Source of the DNA: an uncultured cyanobacterium
GTDB lineage: Bacteria; Cyanobacteriota; Cyanobacteriia; Cyanobacteriales; Cyanobacteriaceae
Assembly (NCBI GenBank): GCA_963749915.1
Contig: CAVVOP010000022.1
Coordinates: 480,001 to 544,000 of the forward strand
DNA length: 64,000 bases
Direction: 5' to 3'
Positions 15,391 through 53,784 of this stretch are shown here, one piece after another (the stretch's first letter is position 1; every line of letters begins with the position of its first letter). Under the pieces are notes generated by a model. It saw only the letters and a program-made list of their open reading frames with translations, was not told the DNA's origin and did not search any database. Both the position numbers and the translations under genes were made by a program.

Positions 15391-17001
15391 ATGGCTTACA
15401 CAATTCCCCAAAATTGCGACAGATGTGGTATTTGTTTACCTGAATGTCCTACAGATGCTATTCAAATGGATCAAGAAAATAATCAATATTGGATAGAACC
15501 AGGTTTATGTAATAACTGTGAAGATGAAGATGGGGAACCTTTATGTGTTAGCAGTTGTCCCGATAGTTTCCCTCTTCCCTTACCTGTTAAAAAAGGCAGA
15601 TATAAAGCTGAACCAAGAGTTTGGAGTACCCATCATCTTTTTCCTAACGGTCAGAATAATCCCATCGCATCCTCGATGGTGATTTGGGAAGCCTGTAATG
15701 TACTGGCGAAAGGATCAGTTTTTCCTTGGCAAACTGATAACAATGGCAAAATTTATTGTGAGCGTCAGGTTAAACAGGGAAAAGGAAAGATTGAATTTCG
15801 TCTGACTGAGGATTTCAGTTCTGATACTCCCGAGATTCTTAGCTTTACAGATGCTAGCTCTAGTCTTGAGCAGATGGATATTCGTGCTACTTGCATGCAT
15901 TTAATCTTCGCAGCCTCTGCTACCACCTTAGAAAGACCTTGGGAACAAGAGTTCGTAATCGATAACAAGCAAATTGAAACTTATTTAGGCTTAGATAAAC
16001 GCAAAGATCTAAGTAAAGCGGCTAAACTGACTTTAATTAAGACCTTAGTACAACAACCTTGTAAACTAATTGCTACTATTGACTGGTTTCAACAGGGAAA
16101 GATTCAATCCTTTTCTGTACCAGAAGACCGTGTTTGGCATTTAGTTGCCATCGAAAACCAGTTTCAAAAAGATGCCCAAGGCTACCAACATCTTGTCGGC
16201 ATGACTTTTAGACTAAAGGCCGGAATCTGGGCACAGTATTTTCTTAACAAACAAGGGTATAAAAAATACGTGGCTTATTATCAATACGGCACCTTGCCCA
16301 AATTTTTGTTAAGTACCGTTATGAGTATTTGGCATCAACACGAAGGGACAGTAAGGATAATGCTGTGGCTGCTGTTTAAAAGCAAAATGGGGAAACAACA
16401 ACGTCTTACTGTTTCCAAGTTAATGTATGTTGCTTATGGAGAAGCAACAGTCAAAGAAGCTTCCTTATATCGAGAAAAACGAAAGCGAATGCTACGCAGA
16501 TTTGAGAGCGACTTAGAAATTCTCAATGATTATCAAATCAAGCCTATTTTCGATCCTGTTACCTATCCGACCAGAATTCAGCCTTTGTGGGCGAGATTAG
16601 CTGATATTCCTGATGATGCAGACGAAGCAATGGAGTTTTGGATTAACGATGCTTCCAGTGAAAATAGTCTTACCGATCCTGCACCACGGGGAAAATGGGA
16701 CTTACTAATGAATGCTCGGATTCTCCAGTTTGAATTCCCTCCAGAATGGGAGAAAGAATTGTCTCGTTGGGAAAACAAAAAAGAACGAAAAACTCGCGGG
16801 AAAAAACAAGTTAAAGATTTATCCTCCCTGAGTGCTGAACTAATTGCTAATTCCAGAAAAAGTCTGGGAATCAGCCAGAGGAAATTAGCACAGCTATTAG
16901 GCAAAAGCCAAAGCTGGATTCGAGATGTCGAGAAAGGTCGTTTTTCGGTTAAACTAGGCGATAGCTTAAAGCTAATGGAAGTGTTACAAATTGATTGTTA
17001 G
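15391..17001 (+). CDS. cnfR: CnfR/PatB nitrogen-fixation transcriptional activator (N-terminal 4Fe-4S ferredoxin, C-terminal XRE HTH)
   Basis: MAYTIP..CDRCGICLPECPTDAI...CNNC...C...CP ferredoxin motifs; C-terminal RKSLGISQRKLAQLLGKSQSWIRDVEKGR HTH; 536 aa length fits PatB/CnfR. Confidence 0.88.
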   Translation: MAYTIPQNCDRCGICLPECPTDAIQMDQENNQYWIEPGLCNNCEDEDGEPLCVSSCPDSFPLPLPVKKGRYKAEPRVWSTHHLFPNGQNNPIASSMVIWEACNVLAKGSVFPWQTDNNGKIYCERQVKQGKGKIEFRLTEDFSSDTPEILSFTDASSSLEQMDIRATCMHLIFAASATTLERPWEQEFVIDNKQIETYLGLDKRKDLSKAAKLTLIKTLVQQPCKLIATIDWFQQGKIQSFSVPEDRVWHLVAIENQFQKDAQGYQHLVGMTFRLKAGIWAQYFLNKQGYKKYVAYYQYGTLPKFLLSTVMSIWHQHEGTVRIMLWLLFKSKMGKQQRLTVSKLMYVAYGEATVKEASLYREKRKRMLRRFESDLEILNDYQIKPIFDPVTYPTRIQPLWARLADIPDDADEAMEFWINDASSENSLTDPAPRGKWDLLMNARILQFEFPPEWEKELSRWENKKERKTRGKKQVKDLSSLSAELIANSRKSLGISQRKLAQLLGKSQSWIRDVEKGRFSVKLGDSLKLMEVLQIDC

Positions 17002-19245: not shown

Positions 19246-20150
19246 GGCTCTTCTACAGTGAGTATGACAAATTAAGTACAAAAACAAAGTCACAAAATGG
19301 TAAAATTTTACACAAGTGAAGCGATCAGTTCTGATAAATAGATGCTACCTCGCTTTTAAACTATTAGGAAAATTAATCAAATTTTTAAATAAAACAATAA
19401 TTTTTATCTTATGCCTTCTAATTCCTCTCTTCATCTTATCACTAAACTTATTAATTTTGAGGGAGTCAAAGCTACTGATTACCATTTTATTACTGACAAC
19501 GAAATTTTAATTACATTATCGAATCAAACATCAGAGTCAACTTGCCCTTATTGTCATACTATTACTAATAAAATACACCAAGATCATTATTATCGAATTA
19601 GAGATATACCTTTGAGTGGTTATGATGTGTTTTTAAATATTAACCGCCGTCAATTTCGATGTATTCATTGCCAGAAAATTTTTAGTGAAGAGTTAAATTT
19701 TGTCAAAAAAAGAAGGACTTATACAACTAGATTGGCAGAGAAAGTAGTTAAGGAAGTGCTAGAAAGTGATATTTTAAACACTGCCAAAAGAAATGGAATG
19801 ACTCCCAGAGAAATAGAAACCTTATCAAAAGAAAAATCAGAAGATTTATTAGAAGAAAAACCAAAGGATTTAAAAAGATTAGGAATTGATGAAATAACTC
19901 AGTTAAAAGGAGGAAAGAATTACGCCGCAGTGTTAGTGGATTTAGACAAAAAAAAACCGATAGCAATTTTAGAGAACAGAAGTAAAGAGACAATCGGAAA
20001 ATACTTGATAAGTCTGGGTTGTGAGGTGTTAAATCAAATTGAAGAAGTCAGCATAGATTTGTGGATAGGATATAAAACTTTGGCATTGGAGTTAATGCCA
20101 AATGCCAATATAGTGGCAGATAGATTCCATGTAATGAAACAAATAAATGA
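19246..20150 (+). mobile_element. ISL3-family element, 3'-truncated copy 1
   Basis: Left end GGCTCTTCTACAGTGAGTATGA; near-identical to 22423-23325; no right end. Confidence 0.9.
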
Positions 20151-20154
20151 GTAG
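19411..20154 (+). pseudogene. ISL3 transposase, truncated
   Basis: CPYC...RDIP...RRQFRCIHC Zn finger, LGIDE, VSIDLW, VADRFHV; stops prematurely. Confidence 0.9.
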
Positions 20155-20589
20155 TCAAAGTATAGACGATTTTAGATATCGCTAATACAATCCTAGATGA
20201 AATGGTTGAATGTGTTAAAATTTTTCTGAATTTATCTATCTTAAATCAATTCTGATAATAACTGGAAGCTAGGTATAATAAGTGTTCTCCCCTTTTTTCT
20301 AATTATTCAAACCAATGAACACACAAAATGAACTAAAAATTGACTGTTTCTTTCCTCAATTTTCTCTTGCTTTTAGATTAATTATTGCAAGCTTCATCGG
20401 CATTTGGCACTAGCTTTACTTTTATTCAAAATGGTTTTCCTAACTGGAACAATATTGGTTTTTTTTCAGGTAATGTAATAATATTGATGGTTTTTCAACT
20501 TTTGACACCAAAGATAACAATTCTGAAGATGAATTAACGGCTTGTGATCTTTTGAATTATATATTCAGCGAGACAATTCATGACCTTAA

Positions 20590-21505
20590 TTTCTTAATCA
20601 GTTAGTTTTTCCCATAATTCTAATAATTTATTATTCATCTTTTTTTGAATGGTGTTATTAATTTAATATTTTTCAGCCATAATTGTTGAAATAAATCTTG
20701 AGAAATGTAGCCCTTATCTCCAAATAATCGACCCCATAAATCCTTCGTTAAATAAGGTACTGTTTTTCTATCGTCCACATTACCTTTTGTTATTTGAAAT
20801 GCCAATATTTCTCCCAATTCATTAATAATTAAATGTAATTTAAAGCCGAAGTACCAGTCTATAGAGCTTTTTCCCCAATGAGCCAAGTTATCAAAAACTT
20901 TATTTCTTTTGGCTCTTTTATTGTGGCAAATAGGAATACCCATTGTATCGATAAAAGAAATTCCTGTACATGATCCTTTACGAGTATTGAGATAAAAAAT
21001 TAAAGGAATTAAAGCGGAAGATTTAAGTTGAACAAAACGATTATAACTGACCAAATTAGGAAAATCTTGAAAATGATAAACCTGAATATGATTTTGATAA
21101 TAGTGTTTAAAGTTTCGATAACTAGAATGATGAAAATAAATAATAATAGTCATAATTTCACTCAAGGATAATCGACTATTTTTGATTCTTTTTTTCTGTT
21201 TAGATGATAAAATTTGACGATTAAAAGATGGTTCAAAAATTAAACAGAAATCATCTACATCATAGAAAAGTGTTTCTAATTCCATAAAAATTAATTTTTA
21301 AAAAATAACATATTGATTATGAAATTAATTTAAAAAAAAAAGGAGATATTAGCAATGAAATTTAATAAATATTCAGAAAAATTAACTTATTAATCTGGGT
21401 AGAACTTTTAATACATTAAGAATTGTAAAATAGCGAAAAATAGTATAAACCCAAAACTCATATAAGTTAAGAGTTTGAGACTATTTTCTTATATCGAACT
21501 CAGGT
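20590..21505 (-). mobile_element. IS982-family element, truncated/frameshifted
   Basis: Terminal ACCTGAGTTCGATA on the minus strand at 21505; transposase ORF 20635-21285 with FIDT, WYFGFKLHL, GDKGYIS; shift at an A-run into MNNKLLELWEK then stop. Confidence 0.85.
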
Positions 21506-21749
21506 ATATTAGGAACAGCAACGGCATTATGCTTCGGGACTATGTTGAAACGTAAAAATACTTTGAATAAAGAAGCTAAATAATATCGATACAAGTACAA
21601 AAATGATAAATAAACTTGAATGACGGCTACTACAGTCGTCTTTTTTTATGTCTCAAAACCGATCGCATTTGAGACTAATATGAATGCAATTAGGTATTGC
21701 TTATGGGGTTAATTGCTTTTAAAGTGAATTATTATTCATTAATATTGGA

Positions 21750-22175
21750 TTAATATTTATCTAGAAACATAAGTTTAAAGTCAGTTGCATTAACAATATC
21801 AATACCCTCAAAAGAATTTAAAACTAGCAAGTCTAAATCACCAGTAATAATAAAATTAACTGGAATAGATAAAGCAGCTTCTAAAACTATTTTATCCTTT
21901 AAATCTCTTAATTCAGAAATCTCTAATATTGATTTTGGTTGGCATAATTTAGTAATTAACTTGACACCATTAACTAACTCTTGAGTTGAATAATTTAGTT
22001 GTTTTAATCTCTTTTGTAACTTTTCTTTAGCTAAGGTTTCTTCTAGCTCTTTTAATAAAGAATTAGAAATATAAATAGTTGCTGAATTATTCTCTGCTAA
22101 CTGAATTATCTGACGAGGAATACCACCCCATAATAGACCTGAAATCCAGATATTCGTATCAAGTAATAGTTTCAC
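21750..22175 (-). CDS. PIN-domain toxin (VapC-like, putative TA toxin)
   Basis: LLDTNIWISGLL, LRDLKD...LEAA, ITGDLDLL. Confidence 0.9.
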   Translation of the reverse strand: MKLLLDTNIWISGLLWGGIPRQIIQLAENNSATIYISNSLLKELEETLAKEKLQKRLKQLNYSTQELVNGVKLITKLCQPKSILEISELRDLKDKIVLEAALSIPVNFIITGDLDLLVLNSFEGIDIVNATDFKLMFLDKY

Positions 22176-22390
22176 TACCCAGCTCTATCTTCCCGAACTT
22201 CTTTCACCAAAGAGACAATTTCTTCTGTGGACAATTGCTCCTTATCTTCTCCTAAATCATCTATTTTTTGCCATAACTGAGTCAAAGTATTTTCTCTTTT
22301 GGTAAACTGCTTAATTAACTGATATACTTCTTCTAATTTTTCTTCGGGAATATTATCAATTTCAGCTTTAATTAAATCTGCTATTGTCAT
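22175..22390 (-). CDS. Putative antitoxin
   Basis: 71 aa, translationally coupled upstream of the PIN gene; C-terminal LSTEEIVSLVKEVR. Confidence 0.7.
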   Translation of the reverse strand: MTIADLIKAEIDNIPEEKLEEVYQLIKQFTKRENTLTQLWQKIDDLGEDKEQLSTEEIVSLVKEVREDRAG

Positions 22391-22422
22391 TATATATTTC
22401 CTTTTGCTGATCTAATAATAAT

Positions 22423-23761
22423 GGCTCTTCTACAGTGAGTATGACAAATTAAGTACAAAAACAAAGTCACAAAATGGTAAAATTTTACACAAGTGAAGCG
22501 ATCAGTTCTGATAAATAGATGCTACCTCGCTTTTAAACTATTAGGAAAATTAATCAAATTTTTAAATAAAACAATAATTTTTATCTTATGCCTTCTAATT
22601 CCTCTCTTCATCTTATCACTAAACTTATTAATTTTGAGGGAGTCAAAGCTACTGATTACCATTTTATTACTGACAACGAAATTTTAATTATATTATCGAA
22701 TCAAACATCAGAGTCAACTTGCCCTTATTGTCATACTATTACTAAAAAAATACACCAAGATCATTATTATCGAATTAGAGATATACCTTTGAGTGGTTAT
22801 GATGTGTTTTTAAATATTAACCGCCGTCAATTTCGATGTATTCATTGCCAGAAAATTTTTAGTGAAGAGTTAAATTTTGTCAAAAAAAGAAGGACTTATA
22901 CAACTAGATTGGCAGAGAAAGTAGTTAAGGAAGTGCTAGAAGGTGATATTTTAAACACTGCCAAAAGAAATGGAATAACTCCCAGAGAAATAGAAACCTT
23001 ATTAAAAGAAAAATCAGAGGATTTATTAGAAGAAAAACCAAAGGATTTAAAAAGATTAGGAATTGATGAAATAACTCAGTTAAAAGGAGGAAAGAATTAC
23101 GCCGCAGTGTTAGTGGATTTAGACAAAAAAAACCGATAGCAATTTTAGAAAACAGAAGTAAAGAGACAATCAGAAAATACCTGATAAGTTTAGGTTCTGA
23201 GGTATTAAATCAAATTGAAGAAGTCAGTATAGATTTGTGGATAGGATATAAAACTTTGGCATTGGAGTTAATGCCAAATGCAAACGTAGTAGCAGATAGA
23301 TTTCATGTAATGAAACAAATAAATGAAGAATTAGATCTGATGCGAAAAAAGCAAAAAAGGGCAGCTTCAGAAATCAAAAATGAAGTAGAAAAAGAGAAAT
23401 TAGAAGAAGTCAAAAAAGTAGCACCAGAGTTAATAATAATGTACGCAGAAAAAGAGGCATGGAGGGATATATTTGAAAGTGAAATAACAGCGGAAGAAGC
23501 ATTAGATAAAATAGCGGAATGGATGAAATCAGCACAGAAATATTTTCCCAAAAGTTGTCAAACAATAAGAAGATGGCTAGATGAAATATTAGGCTATTTT
23601 GACAACAGAACAAGTCAAGGTATAGTAGAAGGAATTAATCAAAAAATTAAGCTGATTAAGAGAAGAGCTTATGGCATGACAAATTTTGATAATTTTAGGC
23701 GAAGAATCTTATTAAATTGGTCTGTATCTTAAAAATGTATCATAGCTACTGTAGAAGAACC
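22423..23761 (+). mobile_element. ISL3-family element copy 2, both TIRs present, transposase frameshifted
   Basis: Left TIR GGCTCTTCTACAGTGAGTATGA; right TIR (reverse complement) GGTTCTTCTACAGTAGCTATGA; A8 instead of copy 1's A9 at about 23125-23132 splits the ORF into 22588-23139 and 23235-23732 (EGINQKIKLIKRRAYG). Confidence 0.93.
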
Positions 23762-23799: not shown

Positions 23800-23846
23800 C
23801 TGACACCTGACACCTGACACCTGACACCTGACACCTGACACCTGAC
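23800..23846 (+). repeat. Heptamer tandem repeat (CTGACAC)x6-7, STRR-like
   Basis: Perfect tandem ctgacac units. Confidence 0.9.
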
Positions 23847-23891: not shown

Positions 23892-25703
23892 TTACTTATA
23901 ATATTCAGCTTGGGTAGCAAATAGGTGGGCATAAGTACCCTGAAGTTTCATAAGTTCCTCATGAGTTCCACTCTCACTAATTGTGCCATTTTCCAGAACA
24001 AAAATACGATCTGTTAGCTTTACCGTAGAAAGACGGTGACTGATAATCAAAGTAGTTCGATTTTTGGCTAAATGACGAAATTTAGTTAGTACTTCCGCTT
24101 CTGCTTGGGGATCTAATGCACTGGTGGGTTCATCAAGAATAAGGATAGGACTTTTACGCAGATAAGCCCTAGCGATGGCAATTTTTTGCCATTCTCCGAT
24201 ACTTAATTCTTCTCCTCTTTCAAATTCGTGACCAAGAATAGTATCGTAACCATGAGGAAAACTGGCGATCATTTCTTCAACACCTGCGAAAGAGGCCGCT
24301 TGGCAAATATCCTGGGATTTATGTAGTAATCTCACATCCCCGAAGCCAATATTCTCTGTCACCGTAAGATTATAATGAGCATAATCTTGAAAAACAGCAC
24401 TAATTTGTTCCCGTAAAATTGAAGTATCGAATTGTCGTAGATCGATGCCGTCTATGGTAATATTACCATCGGTCGGGTCATAAAGACGGCATAACAGCTT
24501 AACGAGGGAACTTTTCCCCGCTCCATTTTTTCCCACAAGGGCAACGGTTTCCCCTGGCTTAATGGTAAAGTTAAGATCTTCCAACACGGGGCGAGAACTT
24601 TGAGCATAACAAAATTGAACGTTATGGAATTGAATTCCCACTTTCAACGGCTCAACAAAAGCACAAGGATGGCTAGGTTCTTCTACTGTCGGTTTTAAGT
24701 CGAGGAACTCATAGAAACTCGAAAGGAATAGACTGTTTTCATAAAGACTGGCTAAACTAGACAATGCTTCCCTCAATAAACTTTGACCCCTTTGAAATGC
24801 CTGATAATACATAACTAGGCTACCAATACTAATCTTCCCTTGAACCGTTTGGTGAGCAATAAAGCCAATAGAACCGAATACAGCCAGATTTCCACTCCAC
24901 TGGGTGATCACTTCTGCGAAAGAACGTTGAGTTGCCAGAGTTATTTTTTCTTTGCGAATAGAAGTGCGTAGTTGATTATATTGTTTGCGAAAACGAGAGC
25001 CTAAATTAAACAGGCGAATTTCTTTGGCATGAGTTTCGTGGGTAAGTAGCCAGTTAAAGTAATCTGCTAATCTTTGGTTTGGTGTCCATTCTCGCCAACG
25101 ACGGTAAAGTTTATCAGCATATTTAATTCGTATGATTAAACTAGGTACAACTGCAAGAAATAAGATAGTAACGATTCCCCAATGCAAAGATAAAAGTAAC
25201 AAGGAGATCGCCACTAGAGAAATTCCGCTTTGTCCTAGTTGGATCAACTGATTTAAAATTATTCTTGGACGATAAGGAGCTTCAGATTGGGCTCGATGTA
25301 AAGCGTCATAGAAAGAGTTATTTTCATAATACCCTAAGTCAACTTCGGTGGATTTAGCGTGGAGTAAATTTTGTACATCATCCGTTACAATTTCCGAGTG
25401 AGCCTCATTGACCACTGCCGACAAGGAACGAGACAAGTCAATAATCAGGGCAATAACAGCCGCAAAAACAATTAGCCCAATTATTTGCTTCATGTCACTG
25501 GTTTTAGTCTCTAAGCTCATAGTGACAGTGTCTATGATTTGTTTTGTTAGATACAGCGAGATAAGGGGAAGGAAACCTTGAACAAAGAGCAAACCAAAAG
25601 AAGCAATAGTTAGAGCGGAAGAGCTGTGCCAGGCAATTTCTACTGCTCGCCATAAAAAGAGTAAACGTTTGATTCTTTGCTTATTACGATAGTTGAAGGA
25701 CAA
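23892..25703 (-). CDS. ABC transporter, fused permease/ATPase (lasso cluster D/exporter)
   Basis: TM N-half; Walker A GKNGAGKS, LSIGEWQKIAIAR, LDEPTSALD, ISHRLST; divergent from the lasso operon. Confidence 0.9.
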   Translation of the reverse strand: MSFNYRNKQRIKRLLFLWRAVEIAWHSSSALTIASFGLLFVQGFLPLISLYLTKQIIDTVTMSLETKTSDMKQIIGLIVFAAVIALIIDLSRSLSAVVNEAHSEIVTDDVQNLLHAKSTEVDLGYYENNSFYDALHRAQSEAPYRPRIILNQLIQLGQSGISLVAISLLLLSLHWGIVTILFLAVVPSLIIRIKYADKLYRRWREWTPNQRLADYFNWLLTHETHAKEIRLFNLGSRFRKQYNQLRTSIRKEKITLATQRSFAEVITQWSGNLAVFGSIGFIAHQTVQGKISIGSLVMYYQAFQRGQSLLREALSSLASLYENSLFLSSFYEFLDLKPTVEEPSHPCAFVEPLKVGIQFHNVQFCYAQSSRPVLEDLNFTIKPGETVALVGKNGAGKSSLVKLLCRLYDPTDGNITIDGIDLRQFDTSILREQISAVFQDYAHYNLTVTENIGFGDVRLLHKSQDICQAASFAGVEEMIASFPHGYDTILGHEFERGEELSIGEWQKIAIARAYLRKSPILILDEPTSALDPQAEAEVLTKFRHLAKNRTTLIISHRLSTVKLTDRIFVLENGTISESGTHEELMKLQGTYAHLFATQAEYYK

Positions 25704-25770
25704 AATTTAACCGAACCTCACTATTTGCAATTAATATAGGATTTTACTTATTCTAGTAAAATTAATATTT

Positions 25771-26970
25771 ATGATGATGATGACTATAACTTCTAATCAC
25801 CCGCAAAAGTCAGAAATAGAGTTTTTATTGTGTTGTACCCAACCGGAGCTGACCACAACTCAAAAAGATCATTTGCTCCATCTTGGAAAACAAGAACTTG
25901 ACTGGTCATACTTAATTTCCTTTGCCTCTGAACATGGGCTTATGCCCTTACTTTATCGTCAACTTAAAGTCACATGCCCTGATATTGTCCCCGAAAAGAT
26001 ACTGATTCAGTTACGCCAATATTCTCTGGCTAAAACAGCAAGAAACATGGCTATGACAGCAGAATTGATCAGGATACTCAATCTTTGTAAAGATCAACAA
26101 ATCCCCATGCTCTCTTTTAAAGGACCTCTTCTTGCTCAACTTGCCTATGGAGATCTTAGTTTTCGGGAATTTGGGGATTTGGACTTACTAATTACTGAAT
26201 CTGAGTTACCTAAAGTTCATAAATTACTTTTAGCTCAGGGCTATCAACCCCTGTACAATATCAAAGATTCACAGATCGAAGTTTATGGAAAATTGCAACA
26301 CGAATTAGCCTACTCCCATGAAGCTAAAGGTATAATTATCGACTTACACTGGTCTATTGTGCACAAATATTTTTCTTTTTCTCCCTCATCTAAGTTTATT
26401 TGGTCAAAACTTGATCAGATCAACTTAAATAATCACAAAGTCGAAACTTTATCACTGGAAATCTTAATTGTTTTTTTATGTGCTCACTCAGCTAAACATG
26501 GTTGGTCAGATCTTTCCTTAATTTGTGAACTAGCCCATTTATTAAAACGCCATCCGCAAATTGATTGGGAAATAATCGAATCTTATATGGGAAATCTAGG
26601 AGGTCGAACTATGGTATTGCTGAGTCTGAGTTTAACTCAAACAATTTATGGAACAAATTTGCCCAAAAATATTTGTCAACAAATAATAAAATCTGAACCC
26701 ATTTTGACTAAACTTTCTGCCCAAGTTGAAGAACAAATCTTTTCCCCCAGAAATAAGCTATTAGATATTTTTTCCCCGAATTTTTTGTATTCTCAAAGTA
26801 TGGAATCTTGGCAAGACCGTTTTCTGTATTGGCTCAATGTTTCTACAACTCCTACTTCTATTGAGATGGAGGCAATTTCCTTACCAACAATTTTATTTCC
26901 CCTTTATTATCCGATCAGGATATTTAGACTAAGCTACAAGCACTTAAAAAAGTTTTTCATCAAAAATTAA
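25771..26970 (+). CDS. Nucleotidyltransferase family protein (NTP_transf_5-like), lasso-cluster tailoring enzyme
   Basis: FKGPLLA...YGD...REFGDLDLL, IDLHW, H.AKHGW motifs. Confidence 0.85.
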   Translation: MMMMTITSNHPQKSEIEFLLCCTQPELTTTQKDHLLHLGKQELDWSYLISFASEHGLMPLLYRQLKVTCPDIVPEKILIQLRQYSLAKTARNMAMTAELIRILNLCKDQQIPMLSFKGPLLAQLAYGDLSFREFGDLDLLITESELPKVHKLLLAQGYQPLYNIKDSQIEVYGKLQHELAYSHEAKGIIIDLHWSIVHKYFSFSPSSKFIWSKLDQINLNNHKVETLSLEILIVFLCAHSAKHGWSDLSLICELAHLLKRHPQIDWEIIESYMGNLGGRTMVLLSLSLTQTIYGTNLPKNICQQIIKSEPILTKLSAQVEEQIFSPRNKLLDIFSPNFLYSQSMESWQDRFLYWLNVSTTPTSIEMEAISLPTILFPLYYPIRIFRLSYKHLKKFFIKN

Positions 26971-27032
26971 CTTACCCAAACTTTGTTATATTAAAGGCGA
27001 AATAATTATAAATTAGTTTGAAGAATTAGATT

Positions 27033-27305
27033 ATGAAGGTAATGGTACCTGAGTCCGTTTTGGTGCAAAATTTAGATAATGAGTCAGTATTGCTGAATAT
27101 TGATACAGAGCAGTATTTTGGCTTGGATGATGTAGGCTCTCAGATGTGGGATCTTCTCAAAACCAGTGAATCAGTAGAAAATGCTACAGAAAAACTGCTA
27201 GAAATATACGATGCAGAAAAAGAACAATTGTACAAAGATTTACTGGAATTCATCGAAAAATTATCAGAACATGGTTTATTACAAATTATTAAAACGCGAG
27301 ATTAA
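27033..27305 (+). CDS. Lasso peptide B1 protein (PqqD-like RiPP recognition element)
   Basis: ESVLLNIDTEQYFGLDDVGSQMWDLL...LLEIYD...DLLEFIEKLSEHGLL. Confidence 0.93.
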   Translation: MKVMVPESVLVQNLDNESVLLNIDTEQYFGLDDVGSQMWDLLKTSESVENATEKLLEIYDAEKEQLYKDLLEFIEKLSEHGLLQIIKTRD

Positions 27306-27729
27306 TTCATTATTACAGTTATCTTCTCATGGGCGAAAATTACTGTTACAAGCTCTGATTTTATTCCCGTTAGTTCATCTTTCTCTAACATTAAAGGGAT
27401 TAAAACAAACTCAATCCTTGCTTGCTAATTTTGTTTCTAAAGCCCAAATTACTCCCCAAAAAAACACTGAGGTGGTTTGCTTTACGGAAAAAATAGTGGC
27501 CATCGCATCTCGCTACAGTCGTCCTTGGGGAAGCTGTTTGAGACGATCTCTTGTCTTATGGTTTTTGTTGCGCCGTGAAGGAGTTGAGAGTCAGTTACGC
27601 ATTGGGGTAAAACGAGAAAAAGACCAATTTTCCGCTCATGCTTGGGTAGAGTGGGACGGAGTTGTTTTAAATGACCAGTCCAACGTGGGAGATGAATTTG
27701 CTATGTTTGAAAATTTACGAGTTCTTTAA
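27271..27729 (+). CDS. Lasso peptide B2 leader protease (transglutaminase-like)
   Basis: SCLRRSLVL (Cys), LRIGV, FSAHAWVE (His); likely ATG at 27271 within track ORF 27211-27729. Confidence 0.93.
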   Translation: MVYYKLLKREINSLLQLSSHGRKLLLQALILFPLVHLSLTLKGLKQTQSLLANFVSKAQITPQKNTEVVCFTEKIVAIASRYSRPWGSCLRRSLVLWFLLRREGVESQLRIGVKREKDQFSAHAWVEWDGVVLNDQSNVGDEFAMFENLRVL

Positions 27730-27741
27730 TGACGATATCCT

Positions 27742-28719
27742 ATGGCTATATATAAATATAAATATGTTGATGTAATTTTTATAAGCAATATTTTTTTACC
27801 GAGCCTTTCTGTCATTAACGGGGATACTTTTGACTATATTTTCCAACTGGGATGCTCATCTTCTCGTAATAGAATATTTGGTGGTGACTGGATACACCAT
27901 TGGACTTTTGCCAATGAGGAAGTATGGCTTTCCTTAGGGAAAGAAGAAAATGAATACTATCTTAAATTTCCTGATATAGCTGACTTCTACTTCTCCCCCG
28001 AAAACAAGACCATTGATTGCTATGAGCAACCCGATATTTCCATCGAAACCATTAGGCACTTATTACTCAATGTAGTTATGCCTCTTGTTCTCACTTACAG
28101 AGGGAAATATTTTCTTCATGTAGGTGCCATAGATCTAAAAGAGATTGGAGTCGCTTTTCTGGGGAAATCAGGTTTTGGCAAATCAACTTTAACCACTAGC
28201 TTTGGGCAAAAAGGGTTTCCCATAATTACAGACGATTGTGTAGTTGTGGAGCAAGATCAAGATAAATTTACCCTTATGCCTGCACCCCCACAGTTGCGAT
28301 TATGGGATGAGTCCATCGATTTCTTATTTGCACAAAAAAAACCCCATTTATCTCGAGGAGTTAACTATACAAACAAAGCACACTTATATGAAGCGGATGC
28401 TATGGGGATTGTGTTTTCCAGTGAAATTGTTCCACTCGGGTGTATATACGTTCTCTGTTCCCCTGAATCGGTGGAAGAATTGGATACCACCATTGACATT
28501 AAGCGATTATCCTCAAGAGAAGCGATGTTTCACTTACTTGAGTCCGTATTTCGCTTCGACATTAGTGACAAATCAAGAGTGGCACAAGAGTTTGATTTCC
28601 TTAGTAAAATTGCACGCTCTGTACCTTGTTTCCATCTTCGTTATCCCAGAAATTTTAATCTTTTGTCCGAGGTACAATCAGCAGTCGTCGAGAACACTCT
28701 AAGGGAGATAAAAGTATGA
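27742..28719 (+). CDS. HPr-kinase-like P-loop kinase (lasso peptide kinase family)
   Basis: LHVGAI...FLGKSGFGKSTL...ITDD...PQLRLW. Confidence 0.85.
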   Translation: MAIYKYKYVDVIFISNIFLPSLSVINGDTFDYIFQLGCSSSRNRIFGGDWIHHWTFANEEVWLSLGKEENEYYLKFPDIADFYFSPENKTIDCYEQPDISIETIRHLLLNVVMPLVLTYRGKYFLHVGAIDLKEIGVAFLGKSGFGKSTLTTSFGQKGFPIITDDCVVVEQDQDKFTLMPAPPQLRLWDESIDFLFAQKKPHLSRGVNYTNKAHLYEADAMGIVFSSEIVPLGCIYVLCSPESVEELDTTIDIKRLSSREAMFHLLESVFRFDISDKSRVAQEFDFLSKIARSVPCFHLRYPRNFNLLSEVQSAVVENTLREIKV

Positions 28720-30635
28720 GTGGAATTGCAGGAGTTGTCCATTGGCATAGAGAACCAGTTAAATCCCATGAACTAGAACAAATGATAGTAAAACTACATC
28801 ATCGTGGACCCCATGGAAGAGGTATTTGGCTTGAGGGTTTTTGCGGTTTAGGTAATACACTGCTGTGGAATACTCCCGAATCCTTACAGGAAAAACTACC
28901 ATCGACCTCTGCTGAGGGAAATTTAGTCATTACCGCCGATGTTCGCCTAGATAACCGAGAGGAACTAATTGAGGCTCTAGGAATCACTAACAGCCATTCC
29001 TGGGAGGTTACTGACAGCGATCTAATTCTCGGTGCTTATCAAAAGTGGGGGCAAACTTGTCCGCAAAAATTACTCGGTGACTTTGCTTTTGCCATTTGGG
29101 ACTCCCGACAAGAGCAACTATTTTGTGCTAGGGATCATTTTGGCTGTAAACCTTTAATCTATTATCACTCAAATGGTATTTTCGCCTTTGCCTCAGAAGT
29201 TAAGGCTTTATTTTGTCTGGGAGACGTTCCTCGGCGTATTAATGAAGGGAGAATAGCCGATTTTTTGGTAATGACCCTAGAACGTATCGATAAAACTTCT
29301 ACTTTTTATGAAAATATTTTTAAATTGCCTCCTGCCCATACTTTGACCATCAATAGAGAGAAATGTTCTTTGGAGTGTTATTGGAATCTTGATAGCAGTA
29401 AGGAAATTCACTACTCATCAGATCAAGATTATGAAGACGCTTTTCTCGAAATCTTTACCGAGGCTGTAAGCTGTCGCCTCCGTAGTCATTCCTTAGTGGG
29501 TTCTATGCTCAGTGGGGGCATGGACTCCTCTTCGATTGTCTGTATTGCCCGTGAGCTTCTTTTGCAAAAAGGAGAATTACTCCATACCTTTTCTGGGGTT
29601 TCTGATGATAGACAAACCTGTTGTGAAAGTCCATTTATTGAGGCAATTCTTGGTTTGGGGGGGTTGAATGCGGAAGTAATTGGAGCAGATGAAGTGAAGT
29701 CTTTTTTACCAGATGTTCATAATTTATTCACACACACCGATGACTTATTTGACTTTCTCCTACATGGCATCACCTTAGTAACTTACAGTGCCGCCCACCG
29801 AAAAGGACTTCATGTGATGATGACTGGTTTAGACGGTGATTTAGTGGTTTCACAAAGGGAAATAATTTTGAGGAAGTTTTTACGCACAGGAAAGTTCAGT
29901 CGTGCTTATGAAGAAGCCCAAGCAATGACGAAGTTAAAAGGTTTATGGGGAGATAACTCCCCGACAAAATTACTCTGGAATGGTGGTTTAAAACCCCTCC
30001 TACCCCAGATTATCAAACAAAGTTGGCGGCTACTAAGCTCTAAAAAGAAAAACCAAGCAGATATTCAAAGCAGTCTTATTTCCGAGGAGTTTGCCCGACG
30101 GGTAAATTTAGAAGAACGCTTAGAAACTCTTTCCATAAATCTGGGAAAATATAAAGTGTTAAAAACAGCTAGAGAAGTTCATCAAAACTCCTTGGATGTT
30201 CCTAATCTCACCGTCGCCCTTGATAGATACGAAAGAGTTGCCGCATTCTATTCCATTGAACCGCGTCATCCCCTTCTCGATAAAAGATTGGTCGAGTTCT
30301 GTCTATCCCTTCCTGGTGAGCAAAAAGTTCGCCAAGGATGGACAAAATCCATTCTCAGAAGGGCAATGGTCGGGAAAGTGCCGGATTCCGTACGCTGGCG
30401 ACACGATTGTGATAATGTACAGCCTGCTTTTACAAAAAGTATGTTACGTCATCAACAAGAATATCTCCCAGATTGTATTGCTGAATGTGCTACTGAGTTA
30501 AAGGATTATGTTAATGTAAAAGAGCTTGAAAAACAGTACTTTCAGTGTTACGCCACAGAAACTGTTAACGAAGACGCAGGATGGAAAGTTTGGCCTACCG
30601 TCATCTTGGCTACGTGGCTTCGTGACCACAGGTAA
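28716..30635 (+). CDS. Lasso peptide cyclase (C protein, asparagine-synthetase-like)
   Basis: MSGIAG start (Ser in place of the catalytic Cys), RLDNREEL, ARDHFG.KPL, LSGGMDSS, EPRHPLLDKRLVEFC, KSILRRAM. Confidence 0.93.
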   Translation: MSGIAGVVHWHREPVKSHELEQMIVKLHHRGPHGRGIWLEGFCGLGNTLLWNTPESLQEKLPSTSAEGNLVITADVRLDNREELIEALGITNSHSWEVTDSDLILGAYQKWGQTCPQKLLGDFAFAIWDSRQEQLFCARDHFGCKPLIYYHSNGIFAFASEVKALFCLGDVPRRINEGRIADFLVMTLERIDKTSTFYENIFKLPPAHTLTINREKCSLECYWNLDSSKEIHYSSDQDYEDAFLEIFTEAVSCRLRSHSLVGSMLSGGMDSSSIVCIARELLLQKGELLHTFSGVSDDRQTCCESPFIEAILGLGGLNAEVIGADEVKSFLPDVHNLFTHTDDLFDFLLHGITLVTYSAAHRKGLHVMMTGLDGDLVVSQREIILRKFLRTGKFSRAYEEAQAMTKLKGLWGDNSPTKLLWNGGLKPLLPQIIKQSWRLLSSKKKNQADIQSSLISEEFARRVNLEERLETLSINLGKYKVLKTAREVHQNSLDVPNLTVALDRYERVAAFYSIEPRHPLLDKRLVEFCLSLPGEQKVRQGWTKSILRRAMVGKVPDSVRWRHDCDNVQPAFTKSMLRHQQEYLPDCIAECATELKDYVNVKELEKQYFQCYATETVNEDAGWKVWPTVILATWLRDHR

Positions 30636-30652
30636 AATTACTTAGTGAGTTA

Positions 30653-30681
30653 TTGACATATACATAATTAAATAATATGAT
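30653..30681 (+). promoter_or_regulatory. Near-consensus sigma70 promoter for the lasso precursor gene
   Basis: TTGACA (30653-58), 17 bp, TATGAT (30676-81), 36 bp upstream of the precursor ATG. Confidence 0.7.
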
Positions 30682-30717
30682 TACGGTCGTCAACGTATTC
30701 AAAAAAATTTTCTTCCA

Positions 30718-30849
30718 ATGAAAAACCAAAATCTCAAAAAATATCACCCTCCTAAACTGGAAATTTATGGTAATGTTTCTAAACTGACTCAGGGTGGTAG
30801 TTCAGGTACCCCGGAAACAGCCATGAATCCCATAGGGGCACGACCATAA
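30718..30849 (+). CDS. Lasso peptide precursor (A), 43 aa, not in ORF track
   Basis: Translated by hand: MKNQNLKKYHPPKLEIYGNVSKLTQ-GGSSGTPETAMNPIGARP*; YxxPxL leader motif, G..V..LT, Thr at -2, Gly1, Glu8. Confidence 0.93.
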   Translation: MKNQNLKKYHPPKLEIYGNVSKLTQGGSSGTPETAMNPIGARP

Positions 30850-31067
30850 ATTTAGCTCAAATGCAATCATAGTCTTTAATCTGGTCAAAACTGTTAGGGC
30901 GTTTTTATCTTCGAAAGGAAATACTACTGTTGATGAACATAGACTTTCTCGGCCTGTTTCTGAACTGGTAAGTTTTTGTTGATAAATCACATTACCCTAA
31001 CGACCAGATCTTAATAATAAATATTATTTTGTCTAAGTTTGTTCATAATTCTCAATCTATCAAAATT

Positions 31068-32222
31068 ATGTATAGTATTTTTGAATATGGAGGAATGATC
31101 AAAGATTCCGTACGGATGTCTGCTTACATTGAGACATTGCGTAGGACAGTAACACCAGAATCTATCGTTTTAGAGATTGGTACAGGCACAGGCATTTTTG
31201 CTCTTATTGCTTGTCAGTTAGGAGCGAGGAAGGTTTATGCCATTGAACCTAATAATGCGGCCATTCGGGTTGCTCAAGATATTGCCCGCGTCAATGGTTA
31301 TGGGGATAAAATTGAGTTCATTCAGAATCTATCAACTGAAATAAACCTGCCTGAAAAAGTTAGCATAATACTCTCTGATCTAAGAGGTACTCTGCCACTA
31401 TTTCAAAATCATATTCCCGTTATTGTTGATGCCAGAAAAAGATTTTTAAGTCCGAATGGTGTACTTATTCCCCAACAAGATACTCTGTGGGCATGTGTGG
31501 TAGAGGCACCAGAATTTTATCGAGATAAATATAGTTCTCCTTGGGATGATAAACCCTATGGTTTCGAGATGAAATCAGCACGGCGATTCACTACCAATAC
31601 TTGGCATAGGTATAAAGTAAAACCGGAAGAACTTTTTGTCGAATCTCAGTGCTGGTCAACTCTGGACTATAACACCAGAGAAGATCCCGATGTCAAAGGG
31701 GAACTAAATTGGACCGTAGCACGCACTGGAGTAGCCCATGGTTTAAGCGTTTGGTTTGATGCCACCTTAGCTGAAGGGATTGGTTTTTCCAATGCCCCCG
31801 ATCAAATCGGAAGCGTTCATGGTGAAGCTTTTTTCCCTTTTTCCTTTCCCGTAAATCTTTCCGAGGGGGATACTGTTTCTGTGACTTTACGAGCTGACTT
31901 AGTGGGGAATGATTATATCTGGCGTTGGCATACCCAGATATTTGCTCAAGACAATCCTGCTCAAGTTAAAACCAACTTTAAACAATCTACCTTTTTTGGT
32001 CAACCTCTATCCCTAAAACAATTACGCAAACTGGCGGAGGGTTACGAACCGAAACTCAATTCAGAGGGGAAAATAGTACAATTGACTTTGCAACTAATGA
32101 GTGAAAATAAAACTTTAGGAGATATTGCCAAGCAACTTACCCATGAATTACCACAACGCTTTTCTTCTCCACAAGAAGCTCTTACTTATGTGGGAAAAAT
32201 TTCTCAGAAATATAGTAAATAA
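31068..32222 (+). CDS. PRMT-fold class I SAM-dependent methyltransferase with RRE-like C-terminal extension
   Basis: MIKDSVRMSAY, VLEIGTGTG, GARKVYAIE, LPEKVSIILSD, RFLSPNGVLIP, HGLSVWFDA; probable ATG 31068 (track start 31029). Confidence 0.82.
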   Translation: MYSIFEYGGMIKDSVRMSAYIETLRRTVTPESIVLEIGTGTGIFALIACQLGARKVYAIEPNNAAIRVAQDIARVNGYGDKIEFIQNLSTEINLPEKVSIILSDLRGTLPLFQNHIPVIVDARKRFLSPNGVLIPQQDTLWACVVEAPEFYRDKYSSPWDDKPYGFEMKSARRFTTNTWHRYKVKPEELFVESQCWSTLDYNTREDPDVKGELNWTVARTGVAHGLSVWFDATLAEGIGFSNAPDQIGSVHGEAFFPFSFPVNLSEGDTVSVTLRADLVGNDYIWRWHTQIFAQDNPAQVKTNFKQSTFFGQPLSLKQLRKLAEGYEPKLNSEGKIVQLTLQLMSENKTLGDIAKQLTHELPQRFSSPQEALTYVGKISQKYSK

Positions 32223-32306: not shown

Positions 32307-32353
32307 TGGTGATTAGGAATTGGGACTGAGGAATCTCCCATTGCCCAATCACC
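32307..32353. terminator. Imperfect hairpin downstream of the lasso operon
   Basis: ggtgattaggaattggga ... tcccattgcccaatcacc, followed by a T-run. Confidence 0.45.
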
Positions 32354-32426
32354 ATTTTTTTCAAGCACGGGAGGATTGATCTGCTCAATGTTAGACTAAA
32401 AGACAGTTATTAGATAATTTTAATCA

Positions 32427-43870: not shown

Positions 43871-46280
43871 TTACACTGCCTTATTTTCAAAGCTTCCTTC
43901 ATAGTCTTTTCGGCTTAATACTGTATCAAACAATCCAATGTCTTCGCCTTCGTGTTTGTTTATTCCAATGTACTCTAAACTTGCGTCTTCGTAACGTTTG
44001 AATTTGTAAACGGCATCATTCATTAATGCAGAATTGAAAACGCCAAGACTAACAAGTAACTCAAAGTCTTTTACGGTTAAGCCTGTTACTTTTTTGAATA
44101 GACCTGGCTCTAATTGCGTGATTACGTCTTTCAGACTTCTTTCTCGATAGTCAGTCAGATACATAAACACAGGAACACGAGTTGCAAATTTGATTAGCTT
44201 GTCTTGTATTTTTTTTCTCAGGCTTTTGTATTCTTTCTCAGTATCGGTAAGCTCTTTCTTTTCTTGTTTTGTGAGCTTTTCATCATTTGCTTCTTTCTTT
44301 AGCTTTTTTAACAGCTTCCGATTTATTGATGATGGTTTCAATGTCCTGATTCAAGTTTCTGAAGCCTTCAATGCTCATTAAAGCTTTCATTGCTTCTTCA
44401 TTTGCCATCAATCGGGCAAGGGTGTTGTTGTCCACATTTACGAGCAATGCACTTTCCCAACGTCTTGCCAAAAGCGTGGCAGTTGTGCCACTCATTGCCA
44501 TATCTAAAATTCCCGCTGCATCCACTTGCTTCATTGAACTGCCGTCATAAGCCAACACAGGCAGGAAGTTGATAAACTCGGCAACTTTTGCTTCGGGGTT
44601 CGATTCGTTTACATTTAGTCGGCAACTGTAATCGGCAATTTGTCTTAATGCACGGTCGGGAGCAAAGTCAAAAACGTAACATTCTTCTTTTAAAATTTCT
44701 TCTTTGTTGGGCGATTTGCTGTCAGGGTTTTTAATGACCCAAGGCGTTTGCACTCGGAATGCTGCTTGAAAATAAGTTTCAGGACTGGAAGAATTACGCA
44801 ACATAAAAATACCTGTCCACGGTTTTACCGATACGCCTGTGGTGAGTTTACCACACGAGAGCGTAATGGTTTTTGATTCCAATGGATTGTCGGTCATGGC
44901 ATCTAAAACTGGTGGCAATGCTTCTATTCCAATTCCTGCTTGTGTTCCTGCTGCAACCACCACTTTGTAATCGTGGTAAAAAATATTTTGTCTTCTTTCA
45001 AGCAACAATGCTATTGCATTACACGCTGCAACGGTTGGCAAAAACCAAAAAGTGTGATTCAACACTTTGAGCAATGGAGCGTGTGAAAACGGCAAAGGCG
45101 GCTTTTTTGCTCCCATCTTTAAATGGTCAACGGTGGTTTCGCTAAACGAACCCCGAATTAAATCCAACCATTTTTGTACTTCGTCTTCGTATTTGAAATG
45201 TGCTTTTCGTCCTTCTCCTTCGGCTGAAAAGAATATGTTTAAATCAAAACCATCAAACTCGCCTTGCATTGCAATTTGGCGAATGGAATCGGGCAATTGA
45301 TAGGTGAGCATTACCATTCGTGGCAAGGCTGCATACGGATTTGAACCTTTTGATTTGTCCCAATTTTCTTTTTCTCTTTGCTCGTCTGAATATGTCCAAT
45401 TGAAAATTTGCTCTTCGATAAATTCACCCGAACTAATAGCACGAAATGGAGTGCCTGACAAATACAAATAGTGATTGGTGCTGATAGGGATTATCTTCTC
45501 TAAGTGTTCCGCTTTGTCTTCTTCGGCAATCCCTTCTTTTTCAATCTTTGTGTATTCTTCAATTTCCTTCTCGGCTTCTAAATCTTTACCGAATAAATCT
45601 TTGGCGTTTTCTCGCCAAGCACCAAAATGGTATTCGTCAAAAATGATACAATCCCACACGGTGGCGTGTACCCATTCGTTTTTGGTTTTGATACCGCCTG
45701 TGTTGGTGTTCTTGCCTAAAAAATCCTGAAACGAACCAAAGCAAACCAAAGGTTTTTTGGTGTCAATATCTTGGCTCGATAATTCATCCGCGTGTTTGGA
45801 AATGAATTGCCAACCTTTAAAGTCAACGTGAGAAACTAAATCTTCTTTCCAGGCATCTTCAACGGCTGGTTTGAAGGTTAGCACCAACACTTTTTTCCAA
45901 CCCATTTTTTTAGCCAATTGATAACTGGCAAAGGTTTTTCCGAAACGCATTTTGGCATTCCAAAGGAAATGGGGCGTTCTGTCTTTATTCTCTTTCTTGA
46001 AACTTTTGAAATAGGCAATGGTTTTTTCAACGGCTGCTTCCTGCTCGGGTCGCATGCCGAAGTTTAGCACTCGGTTTTCATCTGTTTTTTCGCCTGTTTT
46101 GATTTGGTGAATGGCTCTCCGCAAATCATTCAAGGTGCATTTATACCATTCGCCACTGGCGTTTACTACTTTCCATTCTCTTAAAAGACGGTGTACATCG
46201 TGGTCTGTAAATGAACTACCGTCACGCTTCATTGCCGATTCTTCAAATACAATTTTGTATGGAATGGCTGCCGTTCCTAA
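43871..46280 (-). pseudogene. Restriction endonuclease/DEAD-like helicase subunit, frameshifted and 5'-disrupted
   Basis: NAKMRFGKT, FDEYHFG, YLSGTPF, YFQAAFRVQTP; frameshift near 44295 (AVKKA-KKEANDEK) joins ORFs 44283-46232 and 43871-44341; the frame extends upstream as LGTAAIPYKIVFEESA. Confidence 0.8.
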
Positions 46281-46296
46281 TCAATTATGTTTATTC

Positions 46297-46325
46297 AATC
46301 GACATGAGCGCTTTTCATGTCGATT
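46297..46325. repeat. Perfect 11-bp inverted repeat downstream of fic
   Basis: AATCGACATGA-gcgcttt-TCATGTCGATT; further related CGACATGAC and TACATGAC copies near 46340 and 46372. Confidence 0.7.
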
Positions 46326-46387
46326 AGTTTGATTATTTTCGACATGACAGCCACTTCGTCTTTATCAAGTGTACATGACTACGCTTC

Positions 46388-47485
46388 CTATTCAGATAGT
46401 ATTCTAAGCAGTTTATGGTTGATATAATAGGTCTCCTTCCAAACCTGCACGCTCGCAAGCCATCCCGCTTTTTCTATTTCTTTCAAATAGCGCGATGCTG
46501 TTTGTCGTTTGGCAATTCCATTTTCCTCCAGAATCCCAATTTTTATGTAAGGATAGCTGAACAGCAAATCGTTCAACTCTCTGGAGAAAGAAGCCCCCAA
46601 CACAACTTTAAGATCATTTTCGGCATTTGCCTTCAGTTCTAAAATGCGCTTGACCTTATGCAGTGTAGTTTGAGAGGTTTTAGCAACACCATTTACTACA
46701 TACAGCACCCATTCATTCCAGTTGTTTTGCTCTGTTACTTCGCGCAATAGGCGATAGTAGTCTGACTTGTTTTCGATGATGTATTTACTCAAATACAACA
46801 CCGGTAAACCAATCATGTCTTGCTGTATCAAATACAGAATGTTAAGAATACGCCCCGTTCGCCCATTTCCATCACTAAACGGGTGAATGGCCTCAAATTG
46901 ATAATGAATCAGAGCCATTTTAATCAATGGATCTAATTGGCTACTATCAGGTTCATTAATGAACTTCTCTAATTCGAAAAGCTTTTGCCTGATCAACTCT
47001 TCGCCCTCTGGCGGAGTATAAACCACTTGTGCTGTTACAGGATTAGACAATTTAGTGCCCGTATTTCGCCTGACCCCCTCATTGCTGTTACGCAGTTTTT
47101 GCATAATGCCTACCAAAAGATTGGTAGTGATGATGCCTTTCCTCTTTAATTCTTCCAAACCAAAATACATGGCCTCGCGGTATTGCAACACCTCTCTGGC
47201 AGCCTGATTTTTCACCTTATCGCCCATCAAGGTGGCCTTGTATAGCTCATCTTGGGTCGTAACTATGTTTTCAATAGCGCTCGATTCCTTACTTTCCTGC
47301 AACACAATGGTATTGAGCAAAAGCTCAGGATTAGGCAAGGTTTGACAAAATCCCTTCAACTCTGCCAATAGCCTGTTTGCGCGAATGCAAGCCTTGAAAA
47401 TTTCAGGGGTTTCCAGATTAGCAGCAGGGGGTAAATCCGGCAGGGCATTGAAGGGCATGTCGCGGTTGAATACTGTTCTACTCAT
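46388..47485 (-). CDS. Fic-domain protein (class II, C-terminal HTH)
   Basis: Canonical HPFSDGNGRTGR; N-terminal inhibitory motif SSAIEN; RQTASRYLKE HTH. Confidence 0.93.
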   Translation of the reverse strand: MSRTVFNRDMPFNALPDLPPAANLETPEIFKACIRANRLLAELKGFCQTLPNPELLLNTIVLQESKESSAIENIVTTQDELYKATLMGDKVKNQAAREVLQYREAMYFGLEELKRKGIITTNLLVGIMQKLRNSNEGVRRNTGTKLSNPVTAQVVYTPPEGEELIRQKLFELEKFINEPDSSQLDPLIKMALIHYQFEAIHPFSDGNGRTGRILNILYLIQQDMIGLPVLYLSKYIIENKSDYYRLLREVTEQNNWNEWVLYVVNGVAKTSQTTLHKVKRILELKANAENDLKVVLGASFSRELNDLLFSYPYIKIGILEENGIAKRQTASRYLKEIEKAGWLASVQVWKETYYINHKLLRILSE

Positions 47486-53757: not shown

Positions 53758-53784
53758 CAAAAATGAGATGATAAATAGTTATAC

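Follow-up and report, generated by a model that had tools for sequence, protein, structure and literature searches.

What does a methyltransferase with the fold of the protein arginine methyltransferases (PRMTs) do in a lasso peptide cluster, and which group does it methylate? The question is raised by a stretch of 64,000 nucleotides from an uncultured member of the Cyanobacteriaceae (assembly GCA_963749915.1, contig CAVVOP010000022.1, positions 480,001 to 544,000; here called the window), in which lasso biosynthesis genes lie together with genes for a kinase, a nucleotidyltransferase (NTase) and a methyltransferase (MT). Earlier work has covered lasso biosynthesis, lasso kinases and NTases of the PsmN type, and the lasso and RiPP-methyltransferase reviews consulted do not list a PRMT-fold tailoring enzyme. 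Judged by its sequence, the locus is almost certainly an intact class II lasso peptide cluster. The MT is very probably a tailoring enzyme of the lasso pathway, and the modification that it puts on the peptide is probably an as yet undescribed one. Our best single guess, put forward tentatively, is that it would O-methylate the phosphate installed by the kinase.

Gene set and precursor

The cluster consists of eight open reading frames (ORFs), listed here with lengths in amino acids (aa) and profile scores:

23892-25703, (-) strand: ABC exporter (D), 603 aa; PF00005 and PF00664 above cut-off
25771-26970, (+) strand: PsmN/BsfN-type NTase (N), 399 aa; PF14907 207.8 bits (cut-off 31.2); D136-x-D138
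27033-27305, (+) strand: B1, recognition element (RRE) of peptides that are made on the ribosome and modified after translation (RiPPs), 90 aa; PF05402 66 bits (cut-off 23.4)
27211-27729, (+) strand: B2 leader peptidase; NF033537 84.9 bits (cut-off 33); Cys109/His143/Asp155
27742-28719, (+) strand: HPr-kinase-like precursor kinase (K), 325 aa; clade II by tree
28716-30635, (+) strand: lasso cyclase (C), 639 aa; cyanobacterial-type NF033535 688.6 bits (cut-off 525); SGGMDS loop at 266
30718-30849, (+) strand: precursor (A), 43 aa; NF033521 25 bits (cut-off 19)
31068-32222, (+) strand: PRMT-fold MT dependent on S-adenosylmethionine (SAM), 384 aa; ORF open from TTG 31029; PRMT_C domain

A preliminary description of this DNA had claimed a complete lasso cluster. 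All eight ORFs are indeed open and stand in the place and order which it gave, five of them scoring above curated cut-offs, and both overlaps that it had reported, B1/B2 in different frames and kinase/cyclase over 4 nucleotides, were seen again. The kinase scores slightly below the cut-off of PF07475 (30.3 versus 33.3 bits) with a complete catalytic motif (H126-G141-G144-G146-K147-S148-D164-D165), and B1 reaches 62 bits against NF033536, under the cut-off of 80 for that profile. A motif check found the catalytic motifs of kinase, B2, cyclase, NTase and MT intact. Two gene starts call for comment. B2 may truly begin at an in-frame ATG at 27271. The MT probably starts at ATG 31068 rather than at 31029, since the database protein is 384 aa long and the alignments with homologues begin at residue 14. 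By tblastn the cluster genes are single-copy in the genome (the ABC exporter was outside that count), and no second precursor was found there. Contigs from three public DNA runs match parts of the cluster with few differences, no contig covering all of it; one of these runs covers the end of the MT gene without the rest of the cluster, a gap that is no evidence of absence. No RNA data set with this DNA was listed.

The precursor has a leader of 25 aa with a YxxPxL motif and Thr(-2), followed by the core GGSSGTPETAMNPIGARP (30793-30846), which begins with Gly1, carries Glu8, contains no Cys and ends in Pro. The predicted macrolactam ring would thus join Gly1 and Glu8. For the cyclised core we calculate a mass of 1680.789 Da, in agreement with the hand-calculated value of about 1680.8 Da given before. 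Apart from one Arg (Arg17) the core offers no basic side chain of the Lys or Arg type, it has no Asp, and four Ser/Thr residues lie within or adjoining the ring.

The MT and its gene company

The MT matches 2911 protein clusters, distant PRMT-like ones included, and the best 120 all share at least 51% identity over near full length. Scans of candidate stretches recovered at least 572 MT relatives among 598 stretches from genomes and at least 366 among 596 from metagenomes. According to the record titles these relatives come from Cyanobacteria, Acidobacteria, Gemmatimonadota, Chloroflexi, Gamma- and Deltaproteobacteria, Planctomycetes, Actinobacteria and others. No plasmid match was found for MT or kinase, and 12 viral loci match the MT over its SAM-binding start alone. 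The best 80 of the genome list and the best 80 of the metagenome list were examined.

The relatives mostly sit with lasso genes, which bears out the earlier view that the MT belongs to the cluster. In 65 loci with at least 5 kb of upstream and at least 2.5 kb of downstream sequence, the kinase is found 57 times, cyclase and precursor 55 times each and the NTase 49 times, while 8 of the 65 lack any lasso core gene. Among the 92 loci with both MT and cyclase, 89 have the kinase (the three misses being contigs shorter than 4.4 kb) and 66 the NTase; in 92 of 118 loci no more than 300 nucleotides separate the kinase from the MT, and the commonest gene order is B1-B2-C-A-K-MT-(ABC)-NT. In genome G714 the trio A-K-MT occurs by itself. 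Kinase and MT, often with the NTase, are thus the usual kit of a large family that crosses phyla, and the idea that a dedicated MT is an unusual addition to the gene set has to be given up. The cluster is an intact member of this uncharacterised variant of kinase-containing lasso clusters.

Within cyanobacteria the MT is the rarer component: many cyclase loci have the kinase and often the NTase without it. It is matched (E 1e-20) in 11 of 401 cyanobacterial genomes, in four of them at 46% identity or more, and occurs in 2 of 20 genomes of the family to which the window belongs and in none of six congeners. The cyclase family and the nearest relatives of the MT themselves point to a cyanobacterial host. 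Partial cassettes were also observed in cyanobacteria (L039, L040, L073, L323), namely MT-ABC-NT or MT-ABC whose 10 kb of upstream sequence holds no lasso core genes, and a trio A-K-MT with neither B nor C in the vicinity.

Fold and pocket of the MT

The MT is related to PRMTs by sequence (phmmer E 1.6e-25) and by structure, with PRMTs throughout the matches listed in both kinds of search. Its structure model (pLDDT 90.3) matches PRMT2 in Foldseek at E 3.5e-28. Compared with type I PRMTs (PRMT1, PRMT2, PRMT6, CARM1, Hmt1) it shares the Rossmann domain and beta-barrel, the SAM motif and the arm region, at a TM-score of 0.69 (query) and up to 0.87 (target) and 21-25% identity. It differs from them in a D..Q loop with Arg and His, in V-H (I/V-Y in its family) at the THW loop, in three extra helices at the C-terminus and in being bacterial and linked to a cluster. 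Large and uncharacterised as the family is, databases call its members PrmA or PRMT1, and the ESM Atlas gives the relatives automatic PrmA-type labels alone.

The two glutamates of the PRMT double-E loop are described as critical in orienting the guanidine group (PMC9469100). In the window MT this loop is absent: D104 and Q113 align with the two Glu, and the pocket is completed by R106 and H115, the THW position reading S249-V250-H251. Among 170 homologues the first Glu is replaced by Asp in 162, the second position is variable (Gln 68, Gly 35, Glu 26), the Met of the loop has become Arg (R106 in the window) in 145 and His (H115) likewise occurs in 145; the THW His is Ile or Val in 157 and the Trp is Tyr in 162. 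By this alignment, the pocket would have one acid fewer, with an Arg and a His added, and appears to have been rebuilt for an anion. The earlier label of a PRMT-like enzyme therefore holds for the fold and fails for the active site, in which the arginine-binding double-E and THW loops are replaced.

A PIMT-type aspartimide methyltransferase was considered as well and rejected, the score against NF001453 being 18.1 bits at a cut-off of 188 and the core containing no Asp.

At its C-terminus the MT carries a further small domain:

32061-32219, (+) strand: three-helix domain with weak likeness to the helical half of an RRE

Foldseek places lasso B1 and PqqD as its top two matches, yet weakly (E 1.5 and 1.8); VIA-align gives Z 5.4, equal to that of unrelated helix-turn-helix (HTH) domains, and hhalign a probability of 7.6, with 1 of 20 shuffles scoring better. 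The model has three helices and no strands, as against the three strands and three helices of PqqD and RREs.

Some lasso clusters contain PRMT-like genes in which the double-E loop is intact (L048:4124-5416, L069:7686-8900, L117:1922-3238, L285-L288). These genes form a clade of their own (support 100), occur with or without the D..Q enzyme next to them and are candidates for true bacterial arginine methyltransferases. In L048, L069 and L117 such a gene stands second to a D..Q MT, and both readable cores have extra Arg; L285 and L287 are double-E clusters without the D..Q enzyme, and their cores contain Arg.

Phosphorylation site and known systems

The preliminary description had compared the cluster with those of paeninodin and pseudomycoidin. 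Paeninodin, ThcoK and SyanK share with the window an HPr-kinase-like kinase with His-Lys-Asp-Asp and split B1/B2 (PMC9266682), but these systems modify a C-terminal Ser, and the accessible text of PMC9266682 and PMC8498205 reports no PRMT-fold MT for them. The pseudomycoidin psm cluster is similar in gene set, having a kinase and an uncharacterised NTP-transferase with DxD, the latter being needed for the decoration of the phosphate; its hexose sits on a C-terminal phosphoserine, and it has no MT (PMC6993621). Since the window core ends in Pro and has no C-terminal Ser, the paeninodin-type logic fails and the analogy does not carry over.

A better fit is the bsf cluster of Bradymonas sediminis, which resembles the window in its set of A, B1, B2, C, D, K and N, in lacking a C-terminal Ser and in having Ser at core position 3. 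Its kinase BsfK, whose motif spacing is identical to that of the window kinase, phosphorylates Ser3 or Thr3 of the core with the aid of B1. In contrast to the window, bsf comprises seven ORFs with no MT and has Ile(-2), the Ile/Val trait at this leader position being absent from the window precursor with its Thr(-2) (all PMC10368454). By analogy, the cluster may work like bsf plus an extra methylation.

Kinase trees and core peptides extend this comparison. The core set consists of 121 distinct cores from clusters with the D..Q MT type, identical cores being counted once. Eight doubtful or read-through precursor calls were excluded from the counts and 12 doubly fetched loci from the trees; core starts were assigned by rule and are uncertain where the leader has repeated Thr. 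Kinase clade II, which includes the window kinase, accounts for 14 of 100 loci (support 98), and all 17 clade II cores have Ser or Thr within ring positions 2-7. Within this clade, the window core belongs to a subfamily of 13 cores, all of which have Glu8 and an Arg within the final three positions, while 12 have Gly2 and 11 have Ser or Thr at position 3. In clade I, by comparison, 88 of 104 cores end in [KR][ST] plus 0-4 residues (shuffle mean 12); counted by locus, this tail motif occurs in 77 of 86 clade I and 3 of 14 clade II loci. No Glu8 cluster without any MT was found in 602 genomes, where MT-less clusters with more distant kinases were recovered. Because Ser/Thr3 is present in 11 of the 13 Glu8 cores, and in view of the BsfK precedent and the equal motif spacing, Ser3 is the likeliest phosphorylation site. 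By this analogy the kinase would, with somewhat better than even confidence on our part, phosphorylate a ring Ser, most likely Ser3.

Taken as a working pathway, B1 would bind the leader and the kinase would phosphorylate the precursor at a Ser of the ring, with Ser3 as the likeliest site. B2 would then cleave after Thr-Gln, and C would join Gly1 to Glu8 around the tail. The MT would O-methylate the phosphate to give a methyl-phosphoserine cap (+93.98 Da, neutral mass 1774.77), the NTase, judged by homology, could decorate the phosphate like PsmN, and the ABC pump would export the product.

As for the literature, our search found no PRMT-fold MT in lasso clusters and no description of this core, although bioinformatic mention in subscription papers or supplements is possible; in line with the preliminary description, no characterised product was found in the literature searched. 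The lasso reviews PMC9266682 and PMC8498205 name, in the text available, MTs of the C-terminal ester and PIMT types, the parts of a RiPP methyltransferase review (PMC11285071) that were accessible do not mention PRMT, and an expression study of 96 clusters reports, as far as its accessible text goes, two lasso products from Bacillus and Streptacidiphilus (PMC9576775).

Which group is methylated

We tentatively favour, as stated above, the kinase-installed phosphate as methyl acceptor. An anion such as phosphate is suggested because the pocket is unchanged whatever the tails contain, the MTs going with tails that have Lys alone (58 MTs), Arg alone (11), both (19) or neither (11). The cores point the same way, since Arg is missing from 74 of the 121, and Lys and Arg together from 7, whereas all 121 contain Ser or Thr. 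So does the tight company of kinase and MT described above, with the kinase in 89 of 92 loci, its position within 300 nucleotides in 92 of 118 and the trio in G714. Moreover, the tail motif tracks the kinase clade while clade II kinases are scattered on the MT tree (6 changes required), and the loci with a double-E paralogue, L048, L069 and L117, are those with extra Arg in both readable cores. The kinase/MT pair would be analogous to WbdD of E. coli O9a, which phosphorylates and then methylates the phosphate, Arg and His residues conferring this methylation after the kinase step (PMC3482155). The likeness is in logic alone: WbdD acts on a glycan in place of a peptide, has fused domains and a different kinase fold, and is set beside the window pair with no claim of homology. 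If these indications hold, the eukaryotic-type PRMT fold may have been repurposed in bacteria as a phosphopeptide O-methyltransferase which caps lasso phospho-Ser/Thr as a methyl phosphodiester in hundreds of clusters from many phyla, the PRMT-fold subtypes D..Q, E..E and D..D dividing the acceptors; we offer this wider picture with the same reserve. A phosphatase-resistant methyl-phosphate cap would, if true, be new RiPP chemistry.

Several points weigh against methylation of the phosphate. Kinases are present in MT-less clusters too, and the linkage of kinase and MT may be a mere legacy of descent. The NTase, whose supposed target is the same phosphate (PMC6993621), is present in 66 of the 92 loci, so MT and NTase would compete. 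Tested on independent pairs, the link between kinase clade and tail motif does not reach significance (4 pairs, p 0.25). The kinase tree contains no BsfK; among 44 hits, no protein carried the name Bradymonas. The double-E control is weak because it comprises two cores alone and Arg is not rare elsewhere (47 of 121 cores). Finally, the roles of the pocket residues are assigned by alignment to PRMTs, and the window MT has His251 where 162 of 170 homologues have Tyr.

Further opposing observations concern the tails. In 106 of 121 cores a Lys or Arg stands within the last six residues, as against 56 by shuffle and 8 of 22 in MT-less clusters, and this enrichment fits a basic methyl acceptor. It is possible, and in our view only slightly less likely than methylation of the phosphate, that the MT N-methylates the basic residue close to the C-terminal end, which is Arg17 in the window core and mostly Lys in the main family, in which case Asp104 would bind the amine or guanidine and Arg106/His115 would grip a neighbouring phosphate or the terminal carboxylate. 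The Arg found near the end of all 13 Glu8 cores agrees with such an activity, as does locus L355, where a Glu8 core without tail Arg goes with a different, broken MT subtype; the PRMT fold and the acid at the first Glu position are retained as well. Against this, the second Glu and the THW loop are lost, one pocket serves Lys, Arg and no-basic tails, with 6 of 106 loci lacking Lys/Arg in any detected core, and the tail motif tracks the kinase clade. In addition, the tail Arg of a lasso may serve as a mere steric plug. Methylation of Arg or Lys by a pocket without the double-E loop would, if true, be new for the PRMT fold.

An Arg/His pocket would also suit a carboxylate, and a carboxylate is present in every core, which accounts for the indifference to tail sequence. 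With lassomycin as precedent (PMC9266682, PMC8498205), the MT could form a C-terminal methyl ester, the same outcome as with LasF and StspM by another fold. This is unlikely. It leaves the tight adjacency of kinase and MT unexplained, the terminal residues are highly varied (16 types in 121 cores, 12 of which end in Ser), and the known lasso carboxyl MTs are modelled on another enzyme class (PMC9266682). LasF and StspM, like the PIMT homologues acting on aspartimide, share with the window MT SAM-dependent lasso tailoring, but belong to other enzyme classes.

Other acceptors, namely an Asn/Gln amide, a Met sulfur or a nucleotide or sugar added by the NTase, we regard as very improbable. Asn or Gln does occur in 112 of 121 cores, yet it is equally common in controls (19 of 22), and Met, found in 69% of the MT-cluster cores as against 5% of controls, is compared here with controls that are related cyanobacteria. 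Several Glu8 clusters have no adjoining NTase, which speaks against an NTase-added group. The stronger version of this argument, that these clusters have no NTase at all, was dropped: the window NTase has no match in 3 of 3 such genomes, yet in 5 of 5 a PF14907 gene is present at another place, which leaves the argument weak. The Met residues of the 121 MT-cluster cores often stand in runs; the control set comprises 22 MT-less cores.

The window locus is a good test case for these alternatives, as it has a single precursor and few candidate residues, with positions that are simple to mutate, so that a small number of point mutants would tell the three leading hypotheses apart.

History of the window copy

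Genome G715 (67% complete), from the same family, contains a sister cluster with the order B1-B2-K-C'...'ABC-NT, all on one strand; at one junction it lacks the precursor and the MT together with the 3' portion of C and the 5' portion of ABC. Relative to this sister, ABC-NT lies at the opposite end in the window and ABC is inverted; of 40 loci that have the two genes side by side, 38 show ABC ahead of NT in the same orientation. The divergent orientation of the exporter, correctly described before, is a derived local inversion and not a feature of design.

On the MT tree the window MT groups with those of cyanobacteria (95/96) and falls outside the clade of the Glu8 MTs (99/94). A mosaic origin is possible at most, because the tree suggests it and the approximately unbiased (AU) test, which allows the window MT to group with the Glu8 MTs (p 0.207), does not support it. 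Such a history would bring in a further explanation, which we consider improbable: the MT no longer acts on the window peptide, the cluster being mosaic or decaying and its product phosphorylated or glycosylated alone, or not made. The tree position, the unique His251, the inverted ABC, the left flank rich in insertion sequences (IS), the internal deletion of the G715 sister and the failure to find the MT in any of the six congeners agree with it. On the other side stand the AU result, the intactness of every frame and catalytic motif, and the position of the MT directly 3' of the precursor, together with a strong promoter-like site.

Signals, borders and neighbouring genes

Two signal-like features accompany the precursor and the MT:

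30653-30681, (+) strand: promoter-like site TTGACA-17-TATGAT, 37 nucleotides 5' of the precursor
32307-32361, (+) strand: hairpin followed by T7; 19-nucleotide arms, -22.4 kcal/mol, z -2.3

The promoter-like site matches at 11 of 12 positions and is the top of 30 regional sites, a total close to chance (24.1 ± 4.5). The hairpin is likely the 3' end of the cluster, although a terminator scan gave no call there, and the right border is fixed because the two genes past it exist without the cluster in the relative G713. Between precursor and MT, the spacer 30850-31067 folds better than shuffles (-44.8 kcal/mol, z -2.7) and could determine how much precursor transcript there is relative to that of the MT.

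The left flank (19411-23732) consists of IS debris. Besides a DDE transposase it holds two fragments of ISL3 transposases, as well as a gene for a PIN-domain protein that has a small partner upstream. Directly beyond the ABC stop, a tandem heptamer CTGACAC (23800-23846) forms the sole array of three or more copies in the genome.

Further afield, the window encodes at 15391-17001 a protein with a 4Fe-4S and an HTH domain, which we take to resemble the nitrogen-fixation regulator CnfR/PatB. A stretch of higher GC content (43871-48171) holds an apparently split ResIII helicase gene, a Fic/SoFic gene and a short DNA-methyltransferase fragment. The genes at 51531-60476, labelled from their translations, are presumably those for urease, both structural and accessory, and for a pair of flavodiiron proteins.

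Two observations concern other lasso clusters. In MT-less clusters of genome G153, tandem ORFs of about 320 aa each match an RRE profile (L225:4811-6734, L227:10646-15491). In L356:819-1229, L367:3635-4042 and L371:6578-7066 the precursor ORFs run on past the core into Peptidase_S74, the endosialidase chaperone, all above the Pfam cut-off, and self-cleavage by this domain would set the core C-terminus; the three loci have a clade II-like kinase and a distinct PRMT-fold subtype with a D..D loop.

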